Of a stretch of 13,283 nucleotides of DNA, positions 1-4,416 are shown piece by piece. The first letter of the stretch is position 1. Each line of letters begins with the position of its first letter. The notes beneath the pieces are model-generated. The model was not told where the DNA came from. It searched no databases and saw nothing but the letters and a program-made list of their open reading frames with translations. The DNA lies in the UHGV virus genome UHGV-1611552; one strand, given 5' to 3'. This DNA comes from a virus. The position numbers and the translations under genes are program-made.

Positions 1-205
1 GCGGGAATCCTTCCACCAACAGAATAACGCTGTACTGACCGTACTCAACGTCCATACTGTAACGCCCGGCTTCATCCGGATTTTCTGAGGCCAGCGTGTT
101 CACCACCACCGTGGTGCTGTTACGTTTTGCTTTCAGCTGGATTGTGCAGTTCTGTACCGGTTTTCCTGTGCCGTCTTTCAGTACACCTGAAATCTTTACT
201 GCCAT
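1..205 (-). CDS. stf: Side tail fibre protein Stf, N-terminal fragment (gene runs off the window edge at position 1)
   Basis: Minus-strand ATG at 205..203 preceded by GGGGTGAAT (SD-like). Hand translation gives MAVKISGVLKDGTGKPVQNCTIQLKAKRNSTTVVVN..., matching the N-terminus of lambda Stf (orf-401) as I recall it. No stop within the window, so the CDS is partial. Position 64 nt downstream of lom matches lambda. Confidence 0.8.
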   Translation of the reverse strand, partial: MAVKISGVLKDGTGKPVQNCTIQLKAKRNSTTVVVNTLASENPDEAGRYSMDVEYGQYSVILLVEGFP

Positions 206-214
206 ATTCACCCC

Positions 215-243
215 ACAAAAAAGCCCGCCTGAACCGGCGGGCT
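215..243 (-). terminator. Rho-independent terminator downstream of lom
   Basis: On the minus strand: AGCCCGCC-GGTTCA-GGCGGGCT (8 bp GC-rich stem, 6 nt loop; plus coords 222..243) followed directly by TTTTTTGT (plus 215..221). Lies between the lom stop (270..272) and the stf start (205). Confidence 0.6.
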
Positions 244-269
244 GTCATAACACTGTGTTACCTGGCTAA

Positions 270-869
270 TCAGAATTTATAACCGACACCCACGATGAAA
301 CTGTTGGTACGCCAGTCACCGCTGCCGGAGCCTTCATAAGCGACGTCAACGGCCACGGATTCGGTCGGGTTAAACTGCACGCCAGCTCCCCACGCCAGAG
401 ACGTGTTGCTGTGGCGACCGTCATCACTTCCGGTCAGCACATCGTGCGTTTTCCCCTTGTTGTCAGTTACGCGGAGATAATCCCCGGAGAAAGTCGACAC
501 ACGGCTGTAAGCCACACCCGCCATCGCATACGCGCTGAACCATTCATTCACGCGTACAGACGGCCCCGCCATCACGCTGAACCAGCGGTTACGCACGGAA
601 TCTTCATGCCAGCGGGTATCGCTGTAATGGGTCAGCTGGCGATTCTTGTCTCCTGCATAGCTGAATGACGTCACCAGCCCCAGTGTGTCCGTAAACTCAT
701 AACGGTATTTCACGTTAATCCCGTTCAGATCATCACTGCCGGGAACGTTCGTCCGGGCATGAAGATACCCCGCGCTCAGCGTGGACTGATGTTCAGACGC
801 CCATGCAGGCGCACCGGATACGACCAGACAGATGGCTGCGGACAAAATGGCTGCACAAACTTTACGCAT
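270..869 (-). CDS. lom: Outer membrane protein Lom (Ail/Lom/PagC/Rck family 8-strand beta-barrel), 199 aa
   Basis: ATG at 869..867 with GAGAGG SD about 6 nt upstream; TGA at 272..270. N-terminal signal peptide MRKVCAAILSAAICLVVSGAPAWA; C-terminus ...AYEGSGSGDWRTNSFIVGVGYKF with terminal Phe typical of OM beta-barrels. Sits immediately downstream of J as in lambda. Confidence 0.9.
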   Translation of the reverse strand: MRKVCAAILSAAICLVVSGAPAWASEHQSTLSAGYLHARTNVPGSDDLNGINVKYRYEFTDTLGLVTSFSYAGDKNRQLTHYSDTRWHEDSVRNRWFSVMAGPSVRVNEWFSAYAMAGVAYSRVSTFSGDYLRVTDNKGKTHDVLTGSDDGRHSNTSLAWGAGVQFNPTESVAVDVAYEGSGSGDWRTNSFIVGVGYKF

Positions 870-892
870 AATTACCTCTCGCTTTTCTGCAA

Positions 893-917
893 TAAAAAAG
901 GCGCCATTTCTGGCGCC
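893..917 (-). terminator. Rho-independent terminator downstream of J
   Basis: On the minus strand: GGCGCCA-GAAA-TGGCGCC (7 bp stem, 4 nt loop; plus 900..917) followed by TTTTTTATT (plus 891..899). Lies between the J stop (937..939) and the lom start (869). Confidence 0.6.
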
Positions 918-936
918 CGTATATGGGTTATAAAAT

Positions 937-3900
937 TCAGCTGATACTGATGCCTGCGGTGGCTTTCTTCATCACCACAACCAGCAAATCGCTGATACTT
1001 GCTGTGGGATACCAGTCATTTACCAGCCATGCTGACACCGAAAACTCCAGCGTCATGTGGCCGTGACCAGCTGGCATATCAATAACACCACTGTAAATCA
1101 GCGTATTATCCAGCGCGGTACGGTTATAAATTTCAGCACCATTTTTCTTCACTATCAGGCGGCATGACGAATAAATATCGTTATTCTCCCGCTCATGTTT
1201 AGCGCCGCAGAATGCCACCGCTGGAATAACAATTTGCCTGTCAAAAGGCTGATCGTCATAAATCCTGACGGTAATGGTCCCTGATGGCCACCGCTCCGGT
1301 GCCCGGGAGTCCCGCGGGAAAGCCTTACCCACTGTTTTGACAATATCGCCTTCAATCTGATTGGCTGACAGTTTCCCCTTAATCTGACAGTTCTCATTAA
1401 TCGTGACGTTGTTGAGCGTCCCGGAGTTCGCATTCACACTGCCACTGATATCCGCATTTTTAGCAGTCAGCTTTCCGTCCGGTGTCAGGGAAAATGCCGG
1501 TGGATTTCCACCGCTGGTAATGGTGGGGGCCGTCAGGCGTTTCAGGAACACGTCGTTCATGAATATCTGATCGCCCTGACCAACAAACATCGGTTTTGTG
1601 TTGCCATTCGCAGGATTAACCATCGCAATCCTGTCCGCCGCCAGCAGCACCTGACTCTGCATGCCGTCAGGGGTGTTCTCAATACCGGCACCAATACCCG
1701 CGATATAAAGGCGTCCGTCCTGCATCTGCTGCAGCTTCACAGCCCACATGCTGTTCAGGTTATTATTTGTATCAACCTGAACCTTCTGTATCTGCTGAAT
1801 TGCCGCACTCTGGTCTTCCAGTTTCTTATTGACGGTCTGCGTGATTTCATTGCTGACATCCGTAATGGACGTCCTGATTTCAGCCAGGTCAGGCGCAAGC
1901 TGACCGTTATCAATCTGCGTCCACAGCTCCTGAGCCAGATGGGTTTTCCCTATCTCGCCTTTGAAAAAATCCAGATAGCCGGATGCATCATCACTCGGCT
2001 GACCAACAGCCTCCACGAATGCCGATTTGCCAACGGTGTTCACACTGCGAACGTAAAAATAATAATCATGGCCCGGTTTGATATTGATACTGGCGGCTAT
2101 CCAGTACAGCGCCGTGCCAAGATAGCGGGCTGTGGTTTCAACCTGCCTGATATCGGTAATCCGCTTTTCCGAGAACCAGAACTCAAACTGTACCGTCGGA
2201 TCATAAACCGCAAGATGCGGCGTGGCGGTTATCTGAAAATAGCCCGGCGTCAGCTCAATCCGCGACGGCACTGCAGGTGCGGCAATCCGGAACGATACCG
2301 ATGCCGGATCGCCCTGCTGCCCCCACGCATTTACCGCCCGGACTGTCAGCCTGTAGTTCCCTGGCGCCAGTTGCGTGAAGCGGTATGTGGTTTCCGTCGT
2401 CCGGGCCGTGCTGACCAGCCGCTCACTGCCGTCATCCGCTGCCACGGTCAGGCGAAGCAGGAAGCTCACGCCCTTCACCACCTTCGGCGTGTCCCAGCGC
2501 GCCAGCACCTGATATTCCCCGCTGTCTGCGGTGACTTCGGCGGTCAGGTGCTGCACCGCTGGCGGCGTGACACCATTCACCGTGCCGCTCTGGTCGCCGT
2601 CAAAGTGCGCCCCGTTATCCACGATGGCCTCTTTTTCCGGTACATGCTGCACGGCGGTGATGGCATACGTGCCGTCGTCGTTCTCACGGATACTCACGCA
2701 GCGGAACAGGCGCTGGCGCAGCGTCGGCAGCTTCAGCCCCCATACGCTGTATTCAGCAACACCCTCAGGAACACGGCTCACTTTTACCTTCACGCCGTCG
2801 GTGACGGACTGAACCTCCACGCTGACCGGATTGCCACTTCCGTCAACCAGGCTTATCAGCGTGGTGCCGGAGGATGGCAGCGTGATTTCACGGTCGAGCG
2901 TCAGCGTCCGGGTCTGGCTGTTCACCGCCAGCACGCGCCCGCCGGTGCTGATCCCCGCATAGTCATCATCGCAGATTTCAATAACATCACCCGGCACATG
3001 GCGAAGCCCTTCGGCACCCACGCTGAAATCCACGGTCTGCGTCTCCAGCAGCTCCGTTTTAATCAGCCACAGCCCGGCGCGGTGTGCCTGCCCCCGGCTG
3101 GTACAGCCAAAGGCATCCATCTTCGTAACATTACGACCGTAACGGGCAATGGCCTGCGTATCTTCAACAAGCTCTGTCGCCGTCTCCCAGCCGTTGTTCG
3201 GGTCAATCCAGTTCACCTCAACGGCATTATGGCGGTCCTTCAGGGCGCTGAAGCTGTAGCGGAACGGCGCGCCATCATCCGGCATCACCACATTACTGCG
3301 GTTATAGGTCCACACCTTATCCGACGGTCGGTCCTGCACGAACGTCAGCGTCTGCCCGTTCCATACCGGCATACAGCGCATCGCCGAGCAGAAATCACTG
3401 AGCACATCCCACGCCTTGCGCTGTGTGGTCAGCCAGGCATTACAGGTGATGCGCGGCTCCGTGCCGCCAAAACCGTCCGGCACTGACTGGTCGCAGTACT
3501 GGCCGATGACATACAGCGCCCATTTATCCACATCCGCCGCACCAAGACGTTTCCCCATGCCGTAGCGTGGATGGGTCAGCATATCCCACAGACACCAGGC
3601 CATGTTATTGCTGTATGCTGGCTTAAACGTTCCGTCCCAGATACCGCTGTATTGCCGCGTCTGCGGGTTATAGTTCGACGGCACCTGCAGAATACGCCCG
3701 CGCAGATGATAATTACGGCTCACCTGCTGGCTGCCGAACTGCTCCGAATCCACCTGTACGCCGACCAGTGCCGTGTTCGGGTAGCACTGTTTCACATCGA
3801 TGATTTCGGTGTATGACGACCAGAGCGTTTTGTTCTGCAGCTGGTCTGTGGTGCTGTCCGGCGTCATCCTGCGCATCCGGATATTAAACGGGCGCGGCGG

Positions 3901-4416
3901 CAGGTTATCCACCACCACCGAGGCCAGATACTGCGAGGTGGTTTTGCCCTTAATGGTGATGTCTTTTTCCGTCACCCAGCCACCGTTACGTTGTATCTGA
4001 ACCAGCAGGCGGACTTCCGACGGATTCCTGTCTCCCTTTGAGGTGGTTTCCACCAGTGCCTGTACACCGAAGGTAAAGCGCAGACGGTCGATGTTTGCCG
4101 ACGTAATGGTACGGGTGATCGGCGTGTCATATTTCACTTCCGTACCCAGCACCGTCTCGGAGCCGGAGGATTCAAATCCCTCCGGCGGTGTCTGCTCCTG
4201 CTCACCGGCCCGGAACACCACCGTGACGCCGGATATATTGGTATTCCCCTCACTGTCCAGCACCGGCGTACTGTTCAGCAGCACGCTTTTTAATCCATCC
4301 ACCGGACCTTCAACCGGCCCTTCGCTGATGGCATCGATCACACTCAGCAGCTGCGTGGACTTCAGGTTGTCCTTCGCTTCGCGCGGGGTATGCCCCTTAC
4401 TGCTGCCTTTACCCAT
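937..4416 (-). CDS. J: Tail tip / host specificity protein J (central tail fibre), 1159 aa
   Basis: ATG at 4416..4414, TGA at 939..937. N-terminus [34 protein letters not shown]... matches lambda gpJ as recalled. It is the largest ORF and sits 60 nt downstream of I, as in lambda. Length differs from the 1132 aa I recall for lambda J, and the distal third appears divergent. Confidence 0.95.

Follow-up and report, generated by a model that had tools for sequence, protein, structure and literature searches.

An intact lom gene of the prevalent 199-residue class between J and stf, flanked by predicted terminators, in the late operon of a lambda-like phage

The lom gene of lambda-like phages raises two related questions, namely whether it forms a private transcription unit serving the lysogen or is expressed as one more gene of the late operon, and how far the results obtained with lambda Lom may be carried over to other copies. 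The window analyzed here is the whole 13,283-nt stretch of the UHGV virus genome UHGV-1611552. Over its full length it consists of head-tail genes of a lambda-like phage, which form the late operon on the minus strand in the order major head gene E (its end), FI, FII, Z, U, V, G/T and H, followed by M, L, K, I, J, lom and stf, and its best phage match across the entire window is 95-96.7%. The original prediction had described the interval 206-936 as a terminator-bracketed moron that encodes an Ail/Lom family outer membrane protein divergent from lambda Lom. The explanation that best accounts for the whole, and that we consider probable, is that the DNA derives from a lambda-like Escherichia coli phage or prophage whose late operon has, between J and stf, an intact lom gene of the 199-aa class (termed M0 and found also in phage 434 and numerous Stx phages). 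The interval itself required a correction at its lower end, as the stf ATG lies at 203-205 and not at 206, and it is bounded at its upper end by the stop codon of J. The relevant features of the locus are as follows.

1..205, minus strand: start of stf (side-tail-fibre gene), with the ATG at 203-205; the first 68 codons, running off the window
217..243, minus strand: predicted lom-stf intrinsic terminator, AGCCCGCC-GGTTCA-GGCGGGCT, then a T-run
270..869, minus strand: lom open reading frame, 199 aa plus the TGA stop, with the ATG at 867-869
270..272, minus strand: lom stop codon TGA, from the sequence
273..797, minus strand: mature Lom, a predicted eight-stranded Ail/OmpX-type outer-membrane barrel (Pfam, AF2 model, Foldseek, pN/pS)
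798..869, minus strand: lom signal peptide, codons 1-24, MRKVCAAILSAAICLVVSGAPAWA, from the translation, with cleavage predicted after AWA
875..880, minus strand: lom Shine-Dalgarno sequence GAGAGG, read from the sequence, 5 nt before the ATG
894..918, minus strand: predicted J-lom intrinsic terminator, GGGCGCCA-GAAA-TGGCGCCT, then a T-run, ending 24 nt before the lom ATG
937..4416, minus strand: J, 1159 aa, with the stop codon at 937-939
940..1332, minus strand: C-terminal receptor-binding domain of J (aa 1029-1159), Pfam PF12421 Ig_GpJ_C

Translation of the lom reading frame yields the 199-residue protein that had been predicted (MRKVCAAILSAAICLVVSGAPAWASEHQ...GVGYKF), together with its signal peptide, its barrel-type C-terminus and a Shine-Dalgarno sequence of its own, and the latter is invariant across all M0 intergenic regions. 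Judged by eye from the translation, the N-terminus (MRKVCAAILSAAICLVVSGAPAWA followed by SEHQ) has the features of a Sec-type signal, including an AxA site, in which MRK precedes a hydrophobic core and AWA precedes SE at the expected cut; the protein ends in the aromatic sequence GVGYKF. Its assignment to the Ail/Lom family was borne out by a full-length match to the Pfam model PF06316 (Ail_Lom; E 2.8e-123; 409.5 bits, the cut-off being 23; residues 1-199 aligned to all 199 positions of the model), by PHROG 108 ('Lom outer membrane protein'), which scores the window Lom at 364 bits versus 249 for lambda Lom, and by an Ail/OmpX-type fold. For this fold, a first structure model built from 20 close homologues was poor (pLDDT 58.7) and was superseded by a second AF2 model from a 33-sequence alignment covering all classes, with a mean pLDDT of 77.2 and agreement among the five models. 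The latter, a prediction and not a solved structure, has a helix at residues 2-18 followed by a barrel of eight antiparallel strands. Four elements are exposed: L1 (aa 35-48), which is disordered; the long hairpins L2 (aa 73-96) and L3 (aa 121-156), with tips at aa 82-85 and 136-140; and a short, conserved L4 (GSGSGDW). Of these, L1-L3 are specific to the class. The best PDB matches of the model in Foldseek are Ail (3qra, TM 0.73) and OmpX (1qj9, TM 0.74), with E values from 2e-11 to 5e-10.

The resemblance to bacterial members of the superfamily is therefore structural in the first place, and its functional reach appears to be limited. Yersinia Ail (3qra) and E. coli OmpX (1qj8/1qj9) share with Lom the eight-stranded barrel and the protruding hairpins (target-normalised TM 0.73-0.74, sequence E ~1e-18, ~28-31% identity), but the L2 and L3 hairpins of Lom are much longer than those of OmpX, with insertions of ~7 and ~17 residues, and Lom differs from both in its specific L4 and in being phage-borne. 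Salmonella Rck and PagC belong to the same superfamily, and the NCBIfam model for Rck is the best NCBIfam hit to Lom; however, Lom falls below the equivalog cut-offs of both Rck (113.8 vs 258 bits) and OmpX (99 vs 176 bits; NCBIfam NF011777, NF006917), so that neither a virulence function nor complement resistance can be transferred to it by equivalence.

The comparison with lambda Lom is more informative. Lambda Lom (NP_040601) has 206 aa, the length given in the original prediction, and is 44% identical to the window Lom by BLASTP and 46% in a global alignment, hence divergent and not identical. When the alignment is mapped onto the AF2 topology, identity reaches 52 of 76 residues (68%) in the membrane strands versus 25 of 90 (28%) in the extracellular parts, or 18 of 82 (22%) when L4 is left aside (Fisher p = 2e-7 for membrane versus extracellular identity); the individual loops L1, L2 and L3 are 18%, 21% and 25% identical, respectively. 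This distribution agrees with the expectation that divergence would be found in the N-terminus and the exposed loops while the C-terminal strands were shared. The two proteins are alike in locus, family and barrel core and identical in L4 and at the C-terminus, and their genes are followed by a near-identical terminator; they differ in L1, which is 8 residues shorter in the window Lom, and in the sequence of the upstream hairpin.

The description of the window gene as a variant allele could not be kept, as it places lambda at the centre of a family whose centre, according to the Pfam and PHROG scores, is the 199-aa class, which is also the prevalent one. Three classes of Lom were distinguished in lambdoid loci, M0 with 199 aa (the window), M1 with 207 aa and M2 with 206 aa (lambda), and M0 is 46-47% identical to M1 and M2. 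Class-specific DNA of the window lom was detected in 4668 of 5426 complete E. coli genomes (median 2 copies, up to 13), and the same part of lambda lom in 100 of the 5426, many of them laboratory strains. Protein clusters are similarly uneven in size, with 24,859 and 6,993 members for M0, 718 for M1 and 193 for the lambda type. Outside Escherichia/Shigella the M0 class thins fast, the best non-Escherichia match being a 69% copy in Citrobacter. The Lom proteins of phage 434 (UMO75363.1) and of lambdoid Stx, cdtI and BP-4795 phages have the same 199 aa and are 93-96.5% identical to the window protein, and their genes share its position between J and stf, its intergenic hairpins and its Shine-Dalgarno sequence. 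The window Lom is thus far from lambda Lom because lambda has a rare version and the window the version of most E. coli; in these sequence comparisons lambda Lom is the outlier of its family, and binding of LamB is not to be assumed for the window class. The exact window protein is absent from a collection of 15 billion proteins, the nearest entry being 98.5% identical with three residues different, and it represents a new combination of patches that are known separately (V16, ARTNVPG in L1, GDKNRQLTH in L2 and a C-terminal VAVDV...TNSF). A 36-mer taken from the window lom had no exact match among the GTDB species representatives. Intact and ordinary, the window lom exemplifies the commonest form of a familiar gene; annotation pipelines already name it as a routine Ail/Lom gene, and as such it matters little.

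Among 76 distinct M0 alleles the overall pN/pS is 0.17. It does not exceed 0.04 in L4 and in strands b2, b4 and b6, whereas L1 and L2, for which alternative cassettes are in circulation, have values of ~0.3. Judged by the overall value, the class is maintained by purifying selection. As a separate observation, L4 with its flanks (window 306-341, Lom aa 177-188, AYEGSGSGDWRT) is invariant across all three Lom classes and combines a high pS of 0.26 with a pN of 0.002 within the 199-aa class. This motif is not found in OmpX or Ail, and it may be a conserved functional or folding site of Lom proteins. It was also observed that many E. coli copies of Lom have 183 or 185 aa and lack 14-16 residues between the repeats RWFSVMAG and WFSAYAMAG; this deletion, present in database homologues P0034-P0067 and similar ones and corresponding to about aa 97-116 of the window Lom, removes a barrel strand, and such copies are probably dead copies in cryptic prophages.

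That lom in the window is itself a decaying passenger gene without function might be argued from the many homologues with strand-removing deletions and from the dispensability of lambda lom for plaque formation (PMC10695390), but the window copy is of full length and is matched end to end by the family model, and the low pN/pS of its class likewise speaks against decay; we regard this explanation as extremely improbable.

For the flanking regions, the claim that lom is bracketed by terminators was upheld, with a hairpin and T-run in each of the two gaps and a covarying stem upstream; the coordinates first given, 893..917 and 215..243, were off by 1-2 bases and are corrected to 894-918 and 217-243. 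The upstream stem (918 to 899) has 8 pairs closed by a GAAA loop, with -15.7 kcal/mol and z = -2.9 versus shuffles, and its T-run extends to 894, while in the downstream stem (243 to 222) G-C makes up 7 of the 8 pairs and the T-run reaches position 217. A tract of six T follows each hairpin on the coding strand, and the opposite strand has no T-run at either. In a consensus scan of positions 1-1400, three terminator-like sites were observed versus 1.3 +/- 1.1 in shuffles, and two of the three fall, on the coding strand, precisely in the two gaps of ~65 nt on either side of lom; a search of the window against Rfam detected no known RNA family. The J-lom gap was compared in 148 related loci from viral contigs, and covariation was assessed over 15 distinct intergenic sequences. 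Compensatory changes were found at 3 of the 8 pairs of the upstream stem, and 96.7% of the cells are paired; the observed score was reached by 0 of 500 shuffles, and no slid register came close. The variants that keep the pairing include GCGCC/GGCGC, GCACC/GGTGC and GCGTC/GACGC, and the hairpin that occupies the J-lom gap in lambda is unrelated. The downstream hairpin, together with the final ~25 lom codons and the beginning of stf, is near-invariant in all three Lom classes, lambda included. On these sequence features we accept that both elements are genuine intrinsic terminators, pointing in the direction of late transcription. In a minority of loci (L064, L123-L125) another sequence, TGACGGCAGATACAGC..., follows the lom stop codon and replaces the terminator-stf junction, and at least two downstream contexts therefore exist.

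An alternative is that the hairpins are mainly recombination linkers or RNA-stability elements and that lom is simply another late gene. The near-identity of the lom 3' end, the downstream hairpin and the stf start across classes is indeed the pattern of a homologous-exchange junction, and the late transcript must pass both hairpins in order to reach stf. However, the sequence of the upstream stem varies while its pairing is kept by compensatory changes, which points to selection on structure and not on sequence identity, and the T-runs of both hairpins on the coding strand only are a further argument against this reading, which appears quite improbable. The opposite possibility is that the terminators bound a private transcription unit, lom being an autonomous lysogenic-conversion moron with its own promoter active in the repressed prophage and with a product that acts as an adhesin or serum-resistance factor in the manner of Ail, Rck and PagC. 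It is favoured by the transcription of lambda lom in lysogens (PMC1151598; PMC7067206), by the reported link of lambda lom to buccal-cell adhesion, and by the equal expression, with and without induction, of a distant Lom orthologue in the Stx phage Phi24B (PMC3342100), as well as by the downstream terminator and the Ail fold. The position of the gene points in the same direction: in HK97, stf directly follows J across an unrelated 207-nt spacer with no lom between them, and since J adjoins stf there, lom can be considered an optional insert. (Phage D2 had been considered as a lom-less relative, but its junction contains Ns and looks like an assembly artefact, and HK97 was used instead. In D2 (L170, OM475427.1), positions 1118-1327, annotated as a 'host specificity protein J' fragment, join the J receptor-binding domain out of frame to a lambda-type lom 3' end with Ns between them, a fusion that looks like an assembly artefact or a deletion.) Against an autonomous unit, a consensus scan found no sigma-70-like site of at least 9/12 on the coding strand in 1-1400, and a more permissive scan, applied to the 260 nt upstream of lom in five sequences representing the three classes, gave a best score of 8/12 with no site conserved in position, although such scans can miss weak or activator-dependent promoters. 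Furthermore, the lom ATG follows the upstream T-run at a distance of just 24 nt, too short for a promoter; the base composition of lom shows no anomaly relative to its neighbours (GC 56.2% for lom, 56.4% for J and 56.8% for the window); and the scores against Rck and OmpX are below their cut-offs. A literature search for a mapped lom promoter, clouded by unrelated matches, found none. The expression of lom rises strongly late in lambda infection (PMC12366544). The moron label, used in the sense of Juhala/Hendrix for an extra transcription unit within a phage operon, thus holds for the insert position and the downstream terminator, but its expression half finds no support in the promoter scans, the 24-nt gap and the neighbour-like GC, and an autonomous moron may be entertained as a tentative possibility that we are inclined to doubt.

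For lambda Lom itself, a different role has come into view. In a PDB sequence search, entry 9wso was found to contain two chains named 'Outer membrane protein lom' and identical to lambda Lom, together with LamB (maltoporin) identical in sequence to the LamB of the J-LamB complex 8xcj, and neither J nor Stf was detected among its chain sequences; from this co-deposition, as read from the chain sequences only, we infer a complex of Lom with LamB. The entry is of direct relevance to the function of Lom proteins. A study from 2025 reported that expression of Lom protects against lambda-vir and not against T7 (PMC12366544). Taken together, the entry and the block of lambda-vir suggest that lambda Lom binds the receptor of its own phage. 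By extension, the 199-aa Lom could be a receptor-masking (self-exclusion) protein that binds another outer-membrane protein, for example OmpC, whereby lysing or lysogenic cells would be spared wasteful adsorption. Several features of the neighbouring J gene are in favour. The DNA that has diverged from lambda forms one block, at ~350-1400 of the window, which comprises the J receptor-binding domain, the gap and the class-specific part of lom, and the last 150 aa of J are 43% identical to lambda J; among 133 loci no J class is common to two Lom classes, and the 21 phage records with the lambda J receptor-binding domain are exactly those with a lambda-type Lom. These 21 records, however, are all close relatives of lambda and thus not independent, the loci were sampled by Lom similarity, and linkage of this kind arises from physical adjacency alone. 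PADLOC, which has no Lom model, returned no match. Moreover, M0 Lom adjoins at least three J classes, R0 (434 type), R2 (window) and R3, that are mutually 44-66% identical, and identical Lom sequences occur with R0, R2 and R3 domains, which rules out a strict co-variation of Lom class and J domain for the 199-aa class and argues against a partner matched to J. Phage 434 is an example, with a Lom 94% identical to that of the window and an R0 domain only 47% identical to the R2 domain of the window. A receptor-matched role for M0 Lom is not supported by these sequence data, and we consider receptor masking by the 199-aa protein to be somewhat unlikely.

Some additional observations concern the genes on either side of lom. 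The stf start matches a PHROG tail fibre family (E 1e-45) and is near-identical to lambda orf-401. Up to aa ~790, J shares ~98% identity with its lambda counterpart; farther on (window 940-1950, aa ~800-1159), a block that has diverged and contains a 27-aa insertion (aa ~800-950) is followed by an identical stretch and then by the receptor-binding domain of class R2, only ~43% identical to that of lambda J. Class R2 is also present in some Stx2a phages and in PhiR55_1, and a literature search on the receptors of the 'PhiR' phages gave nothing useful. A 515-aa open reading frame on the plus strand (window 1939-3486), antisense to J and with no Pfam match, is most likely a by-product of high GC3 in J.

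Returning to the explanation that we prefer, that of an intact M0-class lom gene in the late operon, a model of its expression can be proposed largely from lambda biology. The Lom precursor would be a Sec substrate, with BAM inserting the protein into the outer membrane. Most lom expression would come from the Q-antiterminated late transcript reading through both terminators; as stf, a late gene, lies past both of them, that transcript must cross them. In the repressed prophage, the terminators would halt unmodified polymerase and would thus insulate lom from J and stf from lom. Expression in the prophage state, if any, might depend on a weak or factor-dependent promoter that overlaps the first hairpin or lies upstream of it, a part of the model that is conjecture because no promoter was found for the window allele. 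In the least certain step, the exposed L1-L3 hairpins would bind a surface partner. For the lambda allele this partner may be the phage's own receptor LamB, with the effect of reducing re-adsorption of sister phages, while the partner of the window allele is probably not LamB, given that L1-L3 are only ~22% identical to those of lambda.

A broader proposal, which we offer although we think it unlikely, is that Lom proteins are generally receptor-masking and that the 199-, 207- and 206-aa classes differ in their hairpins because they bind different outer-membrane proteins, the 199-aa class binding a porin other than LamB. OmpC, the receptor of phage 434, is the obvious candidate for the 199-aa class because 434 carries that class. 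The receptor-masking idea is drawn from lambda only, and the Lom topology from a predicted model.

With respect to the family as a whole, the usual picture of lom as a self-contained unit expressed in the lysogen is accompanied by no visible promoter in any allele class, and results obtained with lambda (adhesion, LamB association and exclusion of lambda-vir) are not to be carried over to the near-universal E. coli copies. If the broader proposal were true, the 199-aa Lom would lower the adsorption of related phages to lysogens or late-infected cells, and what textbooks treat as a 'virulence moron', carried by ~86% of E. coli genomes, would be a phage-phage exclusion device. If the LamB-Lom structure reflects a general receptor masking, the widespread 199-aa class would offer a cheap and direct test of it.
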